Shown here: positions 27,453-51,516 of the stretch, piece by piece
Layout of the letters: every line of letters begins with the position of its first letter
How positions within the stretch are numbered: the first letter of the stretch is position 1
Origin: Ginglymostoma cirratum
Lineage: Eukaryota
Direction of reading: 5' to 3'
Assembly (NCBI GenBank): GCA_024137785.1
Contig: JAHRHZ010000024.1
Span: 27,130,338-27,194,337, forward strand
DNA: 64,000 bases
Notes under the pieces: generated by a model
Told to the model about the DNA's origin: nothing
What the model saw: the letters and a program-made list of their open reading frames with translations, nothing else
The model's database searches: none
Made by a program: the position numbers and the translations under genes

Positions 27453-28480
27453 ATTTGTAGAAGCAATTTCAATAATGATAAATGTTCAATTAAAAAAAAG
27501 ATAAACTTAGTGTATCAGAAGTTTGTTAAGGATTGGGAAAAATACTTTGAACAGAAAAAGAAATTTTTGATGAATCCTACCAGTCAATTTAATGAAAAAT
27601 TAAAATCCAAGACTGATGAGCTGATAAAATTTCATTGTGAAAAGTGCAATGAGTTTTTTGAATTGTGATGCAATCTGGAGAATGGAAAGGGTCAGACGCA
27701 TAGCATGAAAGAGCTGGTGCAGGCTTTAATGTCAGCTAGAGAAATTTTTCAGCAATGGTTTGTGGGTTTAATGAGCAGATTGAAAGAATCTAAGGTGCAG
27801 TCAGCAACCATGGAAGAAAGATTCTGAAATTAACTCAATGCCCATGTGGTGTTGTGCAGATGACCGAAACGAAGGTAACTGAACTGGCCAGAGCATTTAT
27901 TGAACAGAATGAAAGTGTCAAAAAACTTGAAAAAGAATTGGAAGTTAGGAGGATAAACAAATAGGATGAAATTGTGATAGAACTGGAAACAATTTTTCAC
28001 TTTTGAAGCATCAATGAGATAAATGCAAATGTATCTTGGAAGCTATGGCACATACTAAACTGGAAGATAACTTGAAAAAAATGGGAGAAAACCCTAATAC
28101 TAAAGGTTTATTTATCTGGTCTTGATCAAAACAATGAAATGATGAAATCTATCTGGAAAGGTTTATTTATCTGGTCTTGATCAAAACAATGAAATGATGA
28201 AATCTATCTGGAAGGAAGTGTTTGAGAAGGCTATCTTTGGAGTTGATTAATCAGAAATACACTTTCGGTAACAATATTAAGGAAAGATTCAAGGACATTT
28301 TTCCATTACAGGGGAGTAGACTAAGAAAACGCTAAAGATCTTCAGTACATATTTGAGAAGCCTATGAAACATTTATTTATATCATATTAGGTGATTATGA
28401 TGCATTCATAATGGATGAGGGGAGGCCACCAGTATTCCATCAGAAAGCTTTAAAAGAACATGGCACAGATGGATAAACAA
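27453..28480 (+). pseudogene. Decayed coding relic of a coiled-coil protein, possibly GVIN1/VLIG (very large inducible GTPase)-like
   Basis: 27453-27827 reads ~124 codons with one internal TGA: ...LVYQKFVKDWEKYFEQKKKFLMNPTSQFNEKLKSKTDELIKFHCEKCNEFFEL*CNLENGKGQTHSMKELVQALMSAREIFQQWFVGLMSRLKESK...; further frameshifted blocks follow (MTETKVTELARAFIEQNESVKKLEKELEV; YLSGLDQNNEMMKSIWKEVFEKAIF). Family call is by resemblance only. Confidence 0.45.
28102..28211 (+). repeat. Perfect 55-bp tandem duplication
   Basis: aaaggtttatttatctggtcttgatcaaaacaatgaaatgatgaaatctatctgg occurs at 28102-28156 and 28157-28211. Confidence 0.97.
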
Positions 28481-28900: not shown

Positions 28901-28938
28901 ACTATTTCCTAGCTACTGTCAGAAAAAAAGTATATTTG

Positions 28939-29406
28939 TGTCTTGGATCACAGTGTGTATCCAAGCAGTTCTTTTCGATGTGGTTAAATATAACTAACAG
29001 AAGACTCAACAACAGCAATTTGCTTAAATATGAATGTTTATTAAGTAATACTAATGATGACTATGGCAATATTAAATGGAAAAGAAAGGAGAGAAAGCAA
29101 CAAATCTCATGCCCTTCTGCCCATCGTGGACTCCTCAATTGATGGCTGGTCTGGAGGATTAGGTTCGTTTCTGGTACCATTCACAATTCCAGTCTGAGGT
29201 GAAGTCCAATTTCAAAACAAAACTCTCTCTCTTATACAACGTAACAAACAGCTAGTACAGAAAACAGCAGGTACAGAAGACAAAACTGCTGGCTAGTACA
29301 GAAAAAAACAACTACAGAAAAACGCGCTGATTGTGCCGGCTTTGGCAACTATAGGCATGTTCACAGGATTCATTCAAGGTCATGTACCTGTCCAATCTTA
29401 TCAACA
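28939..29406 (-). repeat. 3' LTR (468 bp)
   Basis: Colinear with 32388-32848 throughout; 49/60 identities over the first 60 aligned bases, counted by hand. Confidence 0.9.
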
Positions 29407-29554
29407 AGAACGTATAATAAGAGTACGTAACCCACAGTAGAAGATTAAAACTTTAATGAAAATAACTATCATCAATATGAACAGTACAACTATAGGGTGT
29501 ATCATCAAAGAAATGATCGCAGTGATCTTTGGGGACCAACTCCTGAATATATGA
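29401..29554 (-). pseudogene. Envelope glycoprotein C-terminal transmembrane remnant
   Basis: IFRSWSPKITAIISLMIHPIVVLFILMIVIFIKVLIFYCGLRTLIIRSC*: a long hydrophobic helix preceded by a WSP..(H)PIVVL motif, lying immediately upstream of the 3' LTR where env is expected. Confidence 0.65.
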
Positions 29555-29652
29555 AGGTTCGATTTCACCCTCGGGCAACTGTCTGTGTGGAGTTTGCACC
29601 TTCTCCCCATGTCTGCGTGGGTTTCCTCTGAGTGCTCCGGTTTCCTCCTCAA
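29555..29652 (+). mobile_element. HE1-type SINE fragment inside the provirus
   Basis: aggttcgatttcaccctcgggcaactgtctgtgtggagtttgcac...gtgctccggtttcctc. Confidence 0.9.
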
Positions 29653-32365
29653 GATTTCTTCCTCAAGGCTATGATGGAACCAACAAGTCATACCACCTGA
29701 CTGAGGCAACCAGAATATCATCTACATTTCTTTTTCATTTAATCTATTTACATAATTTGCCCTAAAATTCAGTATATTCCAGATTCAGGTCCTTAATTGG
29801 TTTATTGTAAGTTCTCCAGTTCCCTATCCTCACCTAATAACAGTAAAATAACATCATACATGGATGCAAAATTTCTCCACCTCTCTTCACCTGCATCTGT
29901 CTTGAGGACACTTCTTCAATATGTTTCCTTCCTTGCCAATTTTATGAATGAATTGTATCATTGAGTGGTGACTACCAGCATATGCAGGTATCCCCTTTTG
30001 GCTTACAATATACGTGGTATCAAATATTACAGCTCTGATGTTCATCAGGCTTTACCTTCAACTTATGCTTCCTGCCTTTTATTTTTTGCAGGGTTCCCTT
30101 ACCACAGACTCCCACACCACGTATATCTTTGCTCAGCCTTCATTCATATACACCAACTATCCTAACACCTACTGGTTTAAACACTGGAGTACATGCATTA
30201 GACAAGCACTCAAAATGAGTATTTGTATGTCATCTGATAAACTCATTCACTCAGTTCCACCGTTACTCCTCCTAGAATCCATATTCTTTCATTTCTGTAA
30301 CATATTGATACAATAACCAATTACCTTTTATTTTGATTGCAATACTTTTTACATCCTTTTCGCCAATACTACTTTCATTGTTTTAAAATCAGTTTCTCTA
30401 TGGATTTTGTTTCAGTATCTTACTGTTAAAACTATGTTTTGTGCTCTTCCAAGTCACACTAATCCTTTCATCAATTAGATGTACATGTCTGAGACCCATT
30501 CTTCAGTGCATGTTTTTTACCGTCTCATGTTTGTTACCTCCAAGGTAACATTCACTGTTTGCACACTCACATTGGTATCTCAAGACCATGTCATGTATTC
30601 TTGGACTCGCACATGATATTTTCAAATGACCTATGAGGTTTTAGTTATCTTTCCATGCATGGTCCTGATGCATCGGGTAGTAGTTTGATCACCAATTTAA
30701 TCTTTCTTAAAAAGAAAGACAAGGGCACAGACATCACCAAGAGAAAGCTACCAGTTTGGTGCTTTCATCTAAACTCCCTCTTCACTTGAGTGCATTTTAA
30801 CCTCAATTACTGTCTCAACTCATTTTTCTATTTTTTTTTGTCTCCTGCCACTAGTCTCCACCCCAATTACTTTTTCTCATTCAATTTTGCAATTTAACTA
30901 TTAGCAACATATCTAATTCCAGAGATCTGTAGAGAGTTGATAGTCCATGGAACATTATCTTATAATATTTTAAAATGTTTTTGTTTGATTCAGGCGAAAC
31001 ATGCATTGTTCTCTCTCTCAGATGACCCACTTATTTTTTAAAGTTACTTAGTAATTTATTCTAGATATTTGATATATCAATACATAAATTTGTCCAAAAT
31101 CAATATTCTGTTTACTTCCTTAAAGTTACTAACCATTTTTGTATGCATTGAAACCACTGAGACTGTGTGCATGCACTTTATCGTTTCCTAGAATTCCTCT
31201 ACATTTTTAGGAAACTATCCAATTTAAAAGTTTTAGAATACCAGGTCATCTGAGTCTTAATGTAGTCTTTGTCATGATATGCTTAAGCTCACTCAGGCTC
31301 AGTGGTTTTTAGATTTCTGACACTCACTACAATTAATATTTCCATAGTACTTCCCCAAAACTGAAATATGTTATTGATGAATGGCTTGATGGGTTGAGGG
31401 TGCTTTATCCAACACTGTGTTGCGATGTTGAAATTCTGCAAACAGATTCAGCTTTCAGTGTCTCCAATTTCTGAAAAAAAAACTAGTTCCATTCACTCCA
31501 TGTCAAGGAGAATGGGTTAATTAGTATTAATCTACTATGAATTCAAAAAGGGGGTAGGGCATAAACTCCTGCATATAATTACAACATCCATCTTTCCTCT
31601 TGAAGGAAGGAAAAGCCTACTCTTTTGTAAAATTTGCCATTTCTATAATTCCTTGCACACAGGGAATTGCATTTTCAACATTCCAATGTCCCAGTCACTT
31701 GGATATTAACAATAAGTCAATCTTATCATCCAAAATTAAAGATTTACTCATGTTAAAACAATAATTGAAAGTTCACTCTGGCCAGAAAACTAAATTTCAA
31801 ACATGGTAATTTCTGGAATTAAAATTTGCCTGAGTCCAAATGCAACATGGAGTTAATTCCAAAAGGTAAATTTTTACCAAGCTTTGCAAACCAAATTTTT
31901 GAATCAACGTTTGGCAGATTTCGTTATACATAACAATTGATAGTTTCTTCGAAGGACATTACATTGACCATACATACTCCACACAAAGGCAGGCACACAT
32001 GTACTTTCAAGTCACCATACATTCCCAAAATGCAAACTAACTTCAAAGTATCTCCAGATCTCGAGCTCCAGGGAACAAAACTGCATAAATTGTACAAGAC
32101 AGCATTTAGCAACCTATAAACAAAGGTGCATTCAAACCAGACCAAAAAGAGTTAACACTTCTATAAGGATCAGTACACTTGTACAGCACAGAAACCTGGC
32201 CTGCAGTTCTCTCTTTTTCCAGTTATAACTGTACGCCATCGTTTTGGGGGTCTTAATTGTTCTAACATGTTAGCTACAAACATGAATCCAGAGTCTGCTG
32301 CATTCCACCCTGGAAGGTCTCTGAAGCATCAGGTTGCTTTTCCTTTCTTTTAAATATTTTCCCAA

Positions 32366-32383
32366 ATCCCATCCCCATCACTA
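32366..32383 (-). other. Primer-binding site, tRNA-Ser(GCT) type
   Basis: Minus strand TAGTGATGGGGATGGGAT vs TGGCGACGAGGATGGGAT: 14/18 identical, all four differences are transitions; lies 4 nt downstream of the 5' LTR end. Confidence 0.8.
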
Positions 32384-32387
32384 AAAG

Positions 32388-32848
32388 TGTCTTGGATCGC
32401 ATGATGTATCCAAGCAGTTCTTTTGGATTCAGTTAAATACAATTAAGCGAAGACTAGCCAACACAATTTGCTTAAATATGAATGTTTATTAAGTAATAAT
32501 AGTGATGATAGTGATAACAATAAAAGGAGAAAAAAGAGAAAAACCAACAAGTCTCACGCCCTTCTGCCCATCAGGGACCGCTTGATCGATGGCTGGTCTG
32601 GAGGCTTAGGTACATTCCTGGCACTGTTCATGACTCAGGTCTGAGGCGAAGTCCAATTCTTGGAACAAAATTCTCTCTCTCATACAGCGTAACAGCTAGT
32701 ACAGAAAACAGCAGATACAGAAAGGAAAACTGCTGGCTAATACAGGAAAAAAACTACAGAAAAATATGTTAATTGTGCCAGCTTTGACACATACAGGAAT
32801 GTTCACAGGATTTATCCAAGGTCACACAGCTGTCAAATATTACCAACA
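32388..32848 (-). repeat. 5' LTR (461 bp)
   Basis: Partner of 28939-29406, followed on the minus strand by the PBS. Confidence 0.9.
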
Positions 32849-32914
32849 AGTTTACCCTTCAGCCCATCATATACAACTTGTTTGAAATTCTGCCCACAGT
32901 TTGGGTAGGAAAGC

Positions 32915-39710: not shown

Positions 39711-40829
39711 CAAAAAAAAACTAGTAACATGACCAAAACAGATCTATTAGCAGAGTGAGAGTGAAGATTTGCCCCAAGTAAGATAGAAATAGGCTGCATA
39801 TGACTCTGTGCTAATCGAACCAATGTCCATAGATGCAAGACATGGCCAAAAGAAAGAAATTGCCAGGTTGGAATATGTAGGATACTGAAACCAAGAAGGA
39901 CCCTGTTTAAGTCAAAGACATTTGTCTGGTCCAAACTCCAAATATTGAAAGGAAGCAAGTAATTATAACAGTGCAGCTATCTTTTGTGAAGAGCACTCAC
40001 AAGGTTAAAGGTCCTTCAGATGATGTTATGCACCATCTACCTAAATTAGCAGGGAAGAGATTACCTGTAATGGAAAGTCAAAAGTTTAAAGGCCTTTTAG
40101 ATAAGGTGACAGACCACTGTTTAGCAGGATTAATCAGGAGTCATATCCTCTTTGAAAGACATCCAAGATATAGAAGATCCTCCAGTGGGGACCTGGTTCA
40201 CAGACTAAGCAATTTCAAGTTCAGAACCAAAATCAAAAATCCTCAAGATAAAGACCTACTAACCTTCCAGACTGGGAATGCATCCAAGAAGAACTGTATA
40301 ATATCCAGACTGATTCATTTGTAAATTAGGAACTTGGGAGTGTTTGGGTCATGGTAAGTGTAAGGGTAGCTGTATATAGGAATGTACAAATGGTAACAAC
40401 GGGGACAAAGGCTTAGGAGGAGATCTTGTATAAGGTAATGATTAATATTTAAGAGTTAATGTTACAGAAGCATTAGCTCCAACTAATCTGATGAGTAACA
40501 CAATATCGGGAGTAGGATTAAGTCCACAACTTTCTGACCGAGGCATGAGTGATAGCCACAAAGCCAAGGCTGATTCTGATTCAATGCCTACTTCTTGGTG
40601 GAATAATTCAGTTTTTAAATAAGATTTGGTATCAATTTTCATTGGAGAATCATTAATAACTTTGGTTTAAGTGAGTGCAAATCTCCAGGGTAGAAAATTA
40701 TGGGCCATATCTTTAGAAGGTCTAATGTTTCAGGTCTCTGAAATTAGAATTTTGATGTAAGACAAAATGATAGTTGGCTCCAAACAATGTTAATTAGCAG
40801 AGATAAAAACAAAACTGTATGTGAATGGT

Positions 40830-41838
40830 ATCAGAGATAAAAGGTACTGCAGATGCTGGAGAATCCAAGATAACAAGCATGGGGCTGGATGAACACAGCA
40901 GGTCAAGCAGCATCATAGGAGCAGGAAAACTTGACGTTTCGGGCCTAGACCCTTCNNNNNNNNNNNNNNNNNNNNNNNNNNNNNNNNNNNNNNNNNNNNN
41001 NNNNNNNNNNNNNNNNNNNNNNNNNNNNNNNNNNNNNNNNNNNNNNNNNNNNNNNTTCCTGCAGCCTTCGGGTGGCATCACTGTGGCATTGTAGGAGGCC
41101 AAGGATGGACATGTCATCTGAGGAATGGGAGGGGGAGTTGAAATGGTTCGCGACTGGGAGGTGCAGTTGTTTGTTGCGAACTGAGCGCAGGTGTTCTGCA
41201 AAGCGGTCCCCAAGCCTCCGCTTGGTTTCCCCGAGGTAGAGGAAGCCACAACGGGTACAGCGGATGCAGTATACCACATTGGCAGATGTGCAGGTGAACC
41301 TCTGCCTGATGTGGAAAGTCTTCTTGGGGCCTGGGATTGGGGTGAGGGAGGAGGTGTGGAGGAACAGCAAATCATATTCAGCCTGGGAACCCTGCAGCCC
41401 AATGGCATCAATGTGGATTTCACAAGCTTCAAAATCTCCCCTCCCCCAACCGCATCCCAAAACCAGCCCAGCTCATCTCCACCTCCCTAACCTGTTTTTC
41501 CTCTCACCCCAAGCCACACCCCCATCTCCTATCTACTAACATCATCCCGCCCCCTTGACCTGGCCGTCCTCCCTGGACTGACCTATCTCCTCCCTACCCC
41601 CCTACCTACACTCACCTTTACTGGCTCCAACCCCGCCTCTTCGACTTGTCTGCCTCCTCTCCACCTATCCTCTCCTCTATCCTTCCTCTATCCGCCTCCC
41701 CCTCTCTCCCTATTTATTTCAGAACCCTCTTACCCTCCCCCATTTCTGATGAAGGGTTTAGGCCCGAAACGTCAAGTTTTCCTGCTCCTATGATGCTGCT
41801 TGACCTGCTGTGTTCATCCAGCCCCATGCTTGTTAACC
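40830..41838. mobile_element. Young Penelope-like element: GIY-YIG endonuclease fragment between inverted pLTRs, with 15-bp TSD
   Basis: Minus ORF FTCTSANVVYCIRCTRCGFLYLGETKRRLGDRFAEHLRSV..HFNSPSH (GIY-YIG); + strand C-terminus EEQQIIFSLGTLQPNGINVDF; ctgtatgtgaatggt at 40815-40829 and 41839-41853; 100-N gap at 40956-41055. Confidence 0.92.
41746..41773 (+). ncRNA. Minimal hammerhead ribozyme motif in a Penelope pLTR
   Basis: CTGATGA-agggtttaggccc-GAAA-CGTC: conserved CUGANGA and GAAA boxes, short stem II, palindromic ACGU stem III, GUC cleavage triplet. Confidence 0.75.
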
Positions 41839-48729: not shown

Positions 48730-51516
48730 TAATTAAACTGTATTTATTTCAATGCGACAGGCCTAGCAGGTGAAGCAGATGAACTCAGAGCATGGTTGGG
48801 AATATGGGAATAGGGGACTGGGATATCATAGCATATACAGAGAAGTGGCTCAGGGATGGACAGGACTGGCAGCTTAATGTTCCAGGGTACAGATGCTGTA
48901 GGAAGGATAGAAAGTGGGGAAAGAGAGGAGGAGGAGAGGCATTTTTGATTAGGGATAACATTAGAGGTATACTGAGGGACGATATTCCAGGGAATACATC
49001 CAGGGAAGATATTTGGGTGGAACTGAGAAATAATAAAGGGATGATTACCTTATTGGGATTGTATAGACCCCCCCTCACTATTCAAGGGGAATTGAGAAAC
49101 AAATTTGGGTGGTCTCAGTTATTTGTAAGAATAATAAGGTGGTTATGGTAGAAAATTTTAACTTTCCAGGCATAGACTGGGACTGCCATAGTCTTCAGGG
49201 CTTGGATGGAAAGGAATTTGTTAAGTGTGTACAAGAACATTTTCTCATTCAGTAGGTGAATGTACCTACCAGAGAAGGTTCAAAACTTGACCTACTCTTG
49301 GGAAATAAGCAGGGCAGGTAAGGTGAGTGGGGGAGCACTTTGGAGCCAATGACCATAATTCTATTAGTTTTAAAATGGTGATGGAAGAGGATAGACCGGA
49401 TCCAAAAGTTAAAGTTCTAAATTGGACGAAGGCCAATTTTCATGGTGTTAGGCAAGAAGTTTCAAAAGATGACTGGGGGTGGATGTTTGCAGGTAAAGGG
49501 ACAGCTGGAAAACGGGAAGCCTTCAAAAGTGAGATAATGAGGGTCCAGAGACAATATGTTCCTATCAGGGTGAAAGGCAAGGCTGGTAGGTGTAGGGAAT
49601 GCTGAATAACTAGCGAAGTTGAGTTTTTAGTCAAGAAAAATAAGGAAGCATATATCAGGTATAGACTGCAGGGATCAAGTGATTGCCTTGAAGAGTATAC
49701 AGGCAGTAGGAGTATACTTAAGAGGGAATTCAGGAGGGCACAAAGGGGACATGATATAGCTTCGGCAAATAGGGTTAAAGAGAATCCAAAGGCATTCTAA
49801 AAATACATTAAGGACAACAGGGTAACTAGGGAGAGAACAGAGCCCCTTAAAGATCACCAAGGTCACCTATGTGTGGAACCACAGGACATGGGGATGATAC
49901 TATGAGTTTTTTTGCATCATTGTTTACTGTGGAGAAGGATATGGAAGATAGAGAACATGGGGAAATAAACAGCAACATCTTGAAAAGTGTCTATAATACA
50001 GAGAAGGAGGTGCTGAAAGTCTCAAAATGCATGAAAGTGGATAAATTCCGAAGACCTGATCAGGTGTACCCTAGAACTTTATGGGAAGTGAGGGAAGAGA
50101 CTGCTAGGCCCCTTGATGAGATATTTGTATCATCAATAGCCACAGGTGAGGTGCCGGAAGACTGGAGATTGGTGAATGATGTGCCACTATTTAAGAAACA
50201 TGATAAGGAAAAGCCAAGGAATGATAAACCAGTGAGCCTGACATCGGTGGTGAGCAAGTTGTTGGAGGGACTCCTGAGGGATAGGATTCACATGTATTTG
50301 GAATGGGAAGGACTGATTAGGGTTGCCAACATGGCTTCGTGCATGGGAGATCACGTCTGACTAACTTGATTGAATTTCTGAAGAAGAAACGAAGAGGATT
50401 GATGATAATGGTGGATGTTGTCTATATTGACTTCAGTAAGGCATTCGACAAGGTTCCTCATTGTAAACTGGTTAGCAAGTTTAGATCACTTGGAATACAG
50501 GGACAACTAGCTATTTGGACACACGATTCACTCAGTGTTAGAAGACAAATGGTGGTGGTGGGTTGCTTTTCAGACTGGAGGCCTGTGACCAGCGGTGTGC
50601 CACAAAGATCGGTGCTGGGTCCACTGCTTTTTGTAATTTTTATAAATGATTTGGATATGAACATGGGAAGTATGGTTAGTAAGTTTGCAGATGACACTAA
50701 AATTGGAGGTGTAGTGGACAGTGAAGAAGGTTACCTCAGAGTACAAAGGGATCTTGATCAGGTGGGCCAATGGACTGAGGAGTGGCAGATGGAGTTTAAT
50801 TTAGATAAATGTGAGGTGCTGCATTTTAAAAGGCAAGTCAGGGCAGGACTTATACACTTAATGGCAAGGTCCTGGGGAGTGTTGCTGAAAAAAGAGACTT
50901 TGGAGTTCAGGTTCATAGTTCCTTGAATGTGGAGTCGCAGCTAGATTCGATAGTGAAGAAGGCTTCTGTTACCCTTGCCTTTATTGGTCAGTGCACTGAG
51001 TATAGGAGTTAGGAGGTCATGTTGAAGCTGTACAGGATGTTGGTTTGGCCACTTTTGGCATGCTGCATGCAATTCTAGTCTCCCTGCTATAGGAATGATG
51101 TTGTGAAACTTGAAAGGGTTCAGAAAAGATTTACGAGGATGTTGCCAGGGTTGGCGGGCTTGAGCTAAAGTGAGAGGCTGAATAGGGTAGAGCTTTTTTC
51201 CCTGGACTGTCGGAGGCTGAGGGGTAACCTTATTGAGATTTATAAAATCGTGAGGGGCATGGATGGAGTACATAGGTAAGGTCCCAGGGTGGGGGAGTCT
51301 AAAACTAGAGGGCATTGGTTTAAGCTGAGAGGGGAAAGATTTAAAAGGGACCTAAGGGGCAAATTTTCCATGCAGAGGGTGGTGCGTGTATGGAATGAGC
51401 TGCCAGAGGAAGTGGTGGAGGCTGGTACAGTTACAACATTTAAAAAGCACCCAGATGGCTATACAAATAGAAAGGGTTTAGGGGGATATGGGACAAATGC
51501 TGGCAAACGGGACTAG
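48730..51516 (+). pseudogene. CR1 ORF2 (APE endonuclease and reverse transcriptase), disrupted
   Basis: WDIIAYTEKWL, GLYRPP, GANDHNSI (endonuclease); PVSLTSVVSKLLE, YIDFSKAFDKVPH, SGVPQRSVLGPLLFVIFINDLD, SKFADDTKIGG (RT); KTRGHWFKL..RVVRVWNELP (C-terminus). Confidence 0.93.

Follow-up and report, generated by a model that had tools for sequence, protein, structure and literature searches.

Within a 64,000-nucleotide stretch of the genome of the shark Ginglymostoma cirratum (contig JAHRHZ010000024.1, positions 27,130,338 to 27,194,337; hereafter the window) lies a long terminal repeat (LTR) element, oriented on the minus strand, which a first-pass annotation described as an ancient env-bearing provirus, possibly of lokiretroviral origin. 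The analysis presented here leads to a different view. The element is very probably a non-coding, non-autonomous LTR copy, likely a passenger of a class III, ERV-L-like endogenous retrovirus (ERV) family that the same genome carries. Several features by which non-autonomous elements are recognised were found: it is multi-copy, it is without pol, and its cis signals are held in common with a coding family of similar LTR age.

The two colinear direct repeats of about 465 bp from which the element was first recognised (28939-29406 and 32388-32848) are identical at 377 of 460 aligned bases (82%), and the Kimura two-parameter (K2P) distance of 0.21 between them agrees with the old insertion that had been supposed. 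Comparison with other copies moved the outer end of the 5' LTR to 32875, 27 nt beyond the initial boundary, and a 5-bp target-site duplication (TSD) is therefore recognisable, ATTTG (28934-28938) on the left and ACTTG (32876-32880) on the right, with four of five bases in agreement; the window element is thus one insertion. This duplication, together with a layout found throughout the family, ruled out two independent solo LTRs, an outcome that the annotation had named as refuting its reading. Separated from the right LTR by a spacer of 4 nt (CTTT), the primer site (32383-32366) is complementary at 14 of 18 positions to the 3' end plus CCA of a host tRNA-Ser(GCT) gene, as originally read, and the four genome loci bearing the primer-complementary tRNA end are tRNA-Ser(gct) genes. 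Beside the left LTR, the predicted transmembrane segment WSP..HPIVVL was located with its hydrophobic stretch starting at 29538 on the minus strand, in the env-derived 3' end. Judged against all three copies compared, a deletion of 100 nt at 29408/29409 in the window copy removes the end of the env tail, the polypurine tract and the first ~27 nt of the 3' LTR. Among 18 aligned copies it alone carries an insert of ~110 nt (~29553-29662). A short interspersed element (SINE) had been marked at 29555-29652; the copy-specific insert stands, with four relatives of its 72-nt window-only portion elsewhere within the window, and the SINE label itself is that of the annotation. The reported lack of polymerase and gag motifs was borne out by a six-frame Pfam scan of the interior, in which no reverse transcriptase (RT), integrase (IN) or gag was matched and nothing fell below E 0.07, and an Rfam scan of the window gave 0 matches. 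Among the sequencing runs looked up, none was listed as an RNA holder, and shares were 0.12 or less. The parts of the element are as follows.

32876-32880, unstranded: right copy of the target-site duplication (ACTTG on the plus strand), matching the left copy at 4/5 bases; the family duplication is 5 bp.
32388-32875, minus strand: 5' LTR of 488 bp, TGTA...GACA, from LTR comparison and genome search.
32366-32383, minus strand: primer binding site for tRNA-Ser(GCT), 14/18.
32204-32365, minus strand: leader and first ~60 codons of the helper gag frame, from the gag-pol DNA profile; likely packaging signal.
30047-32203, minus strand: family-wide non-coding core, including the fusion-peptide look-alike, with stops common to copies in all frames, no Pfam match and a best profile comparison of E 0.02.
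29663-30046, minus strand: remnant of a decayed env ectodomain, extending from its cysteine-containing region to the membrane-proximal helix, identified by a profile-profile match to helper env.
29553-29662, unstranded: later SINE-like insertion (label as above), in the window copy only, seen as a gap in alignments to other copies.
29409-29552, minus strand: env transmembrane anchor and start of the tail (WSP...HPIVVL); bird-type env fragments are recovered with a transmembrane profile built on sister copies.
28939-29408, minus strand: 3' LTR without its first ~27 nt (100-nt deletion, polypurine tract also gone), from comparison with other copies.
28934-28938, unstranded: left copy of the target-site duplication (ATTTG on the plus strand), from flank comparison.

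The same arrangement of LTR, 2.9 kb and LTR, a 3.9-kb element, recurs genome-wide. Taken as first-look candidates, the LTR query returned 1417 loci, of which 40 were scored, and the interior query 816. At 19 of the 39 other scored loci the interior was matched colinearly, in one piece, at 78-81% identity, and LTR sequence flanks both sides in 17 of 20 fetched loci. The two flanks agree at 5/5 bases in 8 of the 26 loci with two LTR ends and at 4/5 in 4 more, while the primer site is matched at 14/18 or better in 28 of 33 loci. The window copy was aligned with 17 others (mean identity 83%); omitted were an interrupted copy (L023), a 3'-truncated one (L029) and a duplicate (L030, of L019). The last two (G000:C9, ~96 kb apart) have identical scores and coordinates and probably reflect a segmental duplication. 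At another locus (L040:1-1215) a copy of the short family meets one of gag-pol type tail to tail, in opposite orientation.

Fuller relatives of the kind that the annotation had proposed to look for exist: sister elements with the same LTR carry gag-protease (PR)-RT-tether-RNase H-IN, some of them with env. The same LTR and primer site flank two further interior types, here called helpers. The gag-pol type (77 first-look candidates) is ~5 kb long, with Pfam RVP, RVT_1, RT_RNaseH_2, RNase_H and rve across three copies scanned, and after the integrase it holds only an env stub. The env-bearing type (24 candidates, all scored) has an env region of ~1.9 kb, which IN directly precedes in L056 and L061; the env-bearing copy that was translated has more than 20 stop codons in env. 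Searched against its own genome, the transmembrane peptide found no intact env, the longest open frame being 169 aa among the 150 matches listed. Median K2P distances between paired LTRs are 0.195 for short copies (n=12) and 0.188 for the helper types (n=14). In helper copies such as L032:990-5759, a frame without common stops runs from the primer site through gag, followed by one common in-frame stop and then pro-pol; ATG codons occur inside the primer site, and read-through expression of gag-pol seems likely from this arrangement. One helper-type copy is interrupted by a fairly intact retroelement with RT and an endonuclease-like domain (L011:4700-7100), presumably Penelope-like, which has an 82% relative in L050.

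What ties the short element to the helpers is found at its two ends. A gag-pol DNA profile matches nt 1-195 of the short interior (E 4.5e-43) in 18/18 copies, and DNA profiles recover the first ~190 nt and the last ~260 interior nt as common with helpers, each end in 18/18 copies and with 0 matches in reversed controls. Further inward, window 30046-29829 matches residues 410-514 of helper env (probability 91.6, E 8e-7), the best of 180 profile-profile comparisons, the runner-up standing at E 0.02. The short element thus keeps ~190 nt of the helper 5' end and ~600 nt of the env 3' end. The annotation had pictured a provirus retaining only env remnants; instead, the short interior is a family-wide layout with common stops, and only those ~600 nt can be tied to env.

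The coding state of that interior was assessed from stops common to at least half of the 18 copies: the three sense frames have 48, 75 and 72 of them, the three antisense frames 45, 46 and 37. In control alignments the open frame stands out, with 8 common stops against 42 and 46 in the other frames of helper env, and 8 against 111 and 88 in those of helper gag-pol. Any stop-free path through the core has to change frame at least 28 times, compared with 23-40 times in 30 column shuffles. Since stops are common to copies in all six frames, the template of the short family was likely already non-coding at the time of its spread. This bears directly on the alternative that a pol-less provirus spread with an intact, expressed env, its decay setting in only once it had inserted. 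In favour are the env origin of the 3' 600 nt, an interior whose length would suit an env gene with its leader, and one frame with somewhat fewer common stops. Independent decay, however, would not yield stops common to most copies, the test that brings out an open frame for helper env and for helper gag-pol shows none in the short family, and profiles built from bird envs and from helper env gave no match to the fusion-peptide look-alike proposed at ~30220-30296. A provirus of this kind is very unlikely.

The helper family can be placed through its polymerase. Thirteen natural in-frame pieces of helper RT resemble those of HERV-L and MuERV-L as given in the supplement of PMC7947760. By hand counts, the RT of copy L050 is identical to that of HERV-L at 60/107 positions (~56%) and to a lokiretrovirus RT at ~31/106 (~30%), and the helper motif is HYIDD where two Loki RTs inspected have YVDD. 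Against the PDB, a helper RT profile places Pr125Pol/PR-RT entries first at 1e-21, which we take to be those of foamy virus, and murine leukaemia virus next at ~4e-16; a PDB search with one frameshifted RT region gave no match. A Gypsy affiliation, which the annotation had raised as an outcome against its own reading, was rejected, PDB 4ol8 (cited as Ty3 in PMC7947760) scoring only 4.5e-6 against the same profile. Helper pol gave no dUTPase match in three copies scanned. Its IN matches Pfam rve only, with a WQID motif that occurs 0 times in the searched part of the Loki supplement, and no SMC Pfam domain was found in L011 or three helper copies, these copies being degraded. From its RT and its 5-bp duplications the helper family can be classed as a class III, ERV-L/S-like retrovirus.

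The nature of its envelope is less direct. An exhaustive protein search with a profile of seven natural transmembrane-end pieces gave 15 matches, of which 3 are env ends and 12, of repeat type, were dropped. A word-indexed search with the transmembrane profile gave 2 matches, to unrelated multi-domain proteins, and these were rejected. The three env fragments led to full-length envs, the named ones all from birds, including chicken LOC422926 (873 aa). Helper env matches bird envs in the fusion-peptide region (E 4e-4) and over the C-terminal 110 residues (E 3e-13), and the bird env profile at a probability of 97 over 162 columns, including the membrane-proximal helix. One bird env (P0028) was modelled from 73 sequences, with a predicted local distance difference test score (pLDDT) of 66 and a predicted template-modelling score (pTM) of 0.42; an earlier 12-sequence fold (pLDDT 36) was discarded. 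All 36 PDB rows listed by Foldseek for this model are paramyxovirus or pneumovirus fusion (F) proteins, with a best E of 2.3e-7 and TM-scores of only 0.13-0.23. VIA-align places Newcastle disease virus F at the top (Z 7.4, root-mean-square deviation 12.9, 212 aligned), barely above immunoglobulin (Ig)-fold matches of the N-terminal domain. In front of the F-like core, residues 1-111 of the model fold as an Ig-like beta-sandwich (Z up to 7.1). Against BFVD, env models from walleye epidermal hyperplasia virus 1 (E 3.6e-13) and from walleye dermal sarcoma virus (E 8.7e-8) stand beside paramyxovirus F. By sequence, the bird envs gave no F match in PDB or Pfam; PF00523 matched neither the interior nor 12 bird homologues, and retroviral coat Pfam families matched none of these 12. 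A strict first look with PF00523 against the shark's own genome found nothing and is uninformative, its control being also without a match. CX6CC was not seen by eye in the helper env reading. Among named clusters of the ESM Atlas, Gypsy env, Baculo_F and Fusion_gly lie closest, at 0.83-0.84, but recognition is low and this is a lead only. The env of the shark family is accordingly predicted to be F-like by way of its bird homologue, one step removed.

In bird gene models this env type is found next to RTs of two kinds, one ERV-L-like (38% to the shark sequence) and one more distant (29%), which suggests env exchange between lineages. P0109 and its relatives of 839-874 aa represent a conserved 873/874-aa bird protein in the same env family. 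From its length and homology this protein is probably Ovex1 ORF3, for which PMC2717909 gives 873 aa, as in chicken LOC422926, and leaves envelope identity uncertain. Through membership in the bird env family, Ovex1 ORF3 would likewise be predicted to be F-like.

These results leave little room for the lokiretrovirus reading, in which the element would be a remnant retaining only an F-like env. The F-like Env that the annotation suspected survives as a prediction, since the family env has bird relatives and a model of one of these resembles paramyxovirus/pneumovirus F, yet it is not diagnostic of lokiretroviruses: foamy Env is described as F-related in PMC11468914 and the walleye retrovirus env models are also F-like, so an F-like Env is not specific to Loki. 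Helper Pol does carry a tether and RNase H like Loki Pol, although the tether is common to retroviruses generally (PMC7947760), and there is a coiled-coil-like stretch in the helper Gag region (a weak GAS match, E 0.18). The WSP motif, taken as a sign of lokiretrovirus Env, has four occurrences in the searched part of the supplement, none of them in Env, and the two Loki Envs inspected have ends of another sequence. With the RT following HERV-L and MuERV-L over the very segment that sets it apart from Loki, HYIDD motif included, we regard this origin as extremely improbable.

As a passenger of the ERV-L-like helpers, the element would likely have spread as follows, in the manner of other non-autonomous LTR elements. 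RNA driven by the LTR would keep the cis signals, namely the primer site, the first ~190 nt (a probable packaging signal) and the polypurine tract. Gag and Pol of the coding sister elements would package, reverse-transcribe and integrate this RNA, with 5-bp duplications as the outcome; such mobilisation in trans is what the structure and the similar LTR ages point to. The env remnant was probably kept not for a protein, but for bearing the polypurine tract and adjoining the 3' LTR. After insertion, the window copy gained its SINE-like insert and lost 100 nt.

Several points weigh against this account. For the TSDs the best among several offsets was taken, and at 14 of the 26 loci no match reached 4; the copy numbers come from uncurated first-look candidates; some K values derive from partial LTR alignments. 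The RT placement is a hand comparison with printed reference sequences over one segment. One sense frame has 42 common hard stops, fewer than the 49-81 of five shuffles, and this stop-poorer frame makes a residual, faint coding history of the core possible. Upstream of the last 260 nt, the DNA similarity of the env-derived stretch to the sampled env-bearing copies is barely detectable (E 0.03-0.8), so the donor would be a more distant env. Finally, the 2.15-kb core has no match to helper gag, pol or env in DNA and profile comparisons. Such a lack of similarity, and the sharp change at ~nt 190 from the common leader to unrelated sequence, would fit a core captured from host or transposon DNA, the element being then a recombinant with retroviral ends only. 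On the other hand, the 3' part adjoining the core is env-derived, and of 510 candidates for an 851-nt core query the 40 scored are all family-like (~78-83%); no outside donor is among those scored, where one could rank lower. Capture is a tentative proposal with the odds somewhat against it; it concerns the origin of the core only and is compatible with a non-coding passenger.

The age of the insertion depends on the rate chosen. A K of 0.21 corresponds to ~48 million years at a mammalian rate of 2.2e-9, and to ~480 million years at the shark rate of 2.2e-10 assumed in PMC4422223. No age narrower than tens to hundreds of millions of years is justified. On the host side, a beta-globin exon of the genome matches PDB 1gcv/1gcw and 3mkb, which are shark haemoglobins, at 1e-21 and 2e-19, ahead of the next beta chain at 6e-13. 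The family is long dead, and this locus is one ordinary, inactive copy of a repeat. Elsewhere in the window, a perfect 55-nt tandem duplication lies just outside the element (28102-28211), either a recent event or an assembly artefact. Gaps near 41 kb and at 59.2-59.7 kb hold 500 N. What we take to be LINE-like RT fragments, and a fragment resembling the L011 insert, lie at 49851-50926 and 40794-41486.

One LTR is found with three kinds of interior. Some copies bear env, others have it deleted, and the fully non-coding ones are, by candidate count, the commonest. An F-like env cannot serve as a diagnostic of lokiretroviruses, and a testable fold is offered for chicken Ovex1 ORF3. We lean, by a narrow measure, towards sharks having hosted an ERV-L-clade retrovirus with a paramyxovirus-F-like env of the same family as the bird ERV envs and chicken Ovex1 ORF3. 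If so, the F-type Env would be an old class III feature beyond foamy viruses and lokiretroviruses, the env-less state of ERV-L would be derived, Ovex1 ORF3 would be an F-like fusogen, and the window element would be a non-coding passenger that out-replicated an F-env retrovirus several-fold. No report of an ERV-L-type polymerase with a predicted F-like env in a shark was found in the literature searched; subscription papers, Repbase/Dfam and bioRxiv supplements may hold the family.

Compared with known systems, the helpers are closest in polymerase to ERV-L (HERV-L, MuERV-L), with which their RT motifs align almost block by block, HYIDD included, and they likewise have a tether and RNase H. 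The primer differs, being a serine tRNA in the shark family and a leucine tRNA in ERV-L. In PMC8278194, YIDD and 5-bp TSDs are given as ERV-L-like features, and the shark family has such duplications. ERV-L proper has dUTPase and, in mammals, is env-less by the same source, whereas the helpers gave no dUTPase match in three copies and some carry env after IN. The ERV-S group, including XtERV-S, is nearer in these respects: PMC8278194 describes a serine primer, an ERV-L-related pol with YIDD, env, a 5-bp TSD, absence of dUTPase from ERV-S as in the three helper copies, and deleted XtERV-S copies that retain the primer site, the gag 5' end and the polypurine tract. XtERV-S itself, by that account, differs in using tRNA-Ser(AGA/TGA), in having a dUTPase and in a gamma-type transmembrane protein with an immunosuppressive domain (ISD) and CX6CC, while the shark family uses Ser(GCT) and has an env of the bird Ovex1-ORF3-like type, a type without ISD/CX6CC motifs (PMC2717909). 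Class III ERVs are present in all major vertebrate lineages (PMC6001957), so finding one in a shark is no novelty in itself. Lokiretroviruses share the F-like Env (predicted in the shark) and dual RNase H, but their RT is distant and the two Loki Envs inspected differ in fusion-peptide and transmembrane ends; one Chondrichthyes row of their screen has 0/3 genomes positive (PMC7947760). The bird ERV envs, including LOC422926, share with helper copies the transmembrane end WSP..HP.V.L, the membrane-proximal helix and the fusion-peptide-region match; these are open genes in birds, whereas in the shark the copies are broken, with no more than the 3' end left in the window copy. As a non-autonomous LTR element the short family resembles the mammalian apparent LTR retrotransposons (MaLR), which are also pol-less with cis signals common with a helper. 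MaLR retains a gag-derived frame, whereas no frame is open in the shark short interior, the end of which is an env remnant. The excess of the short family over its helpers is MaLR-like, with 816 and 510 candidates for the interior and core queries, while pol has 77 and env 24.

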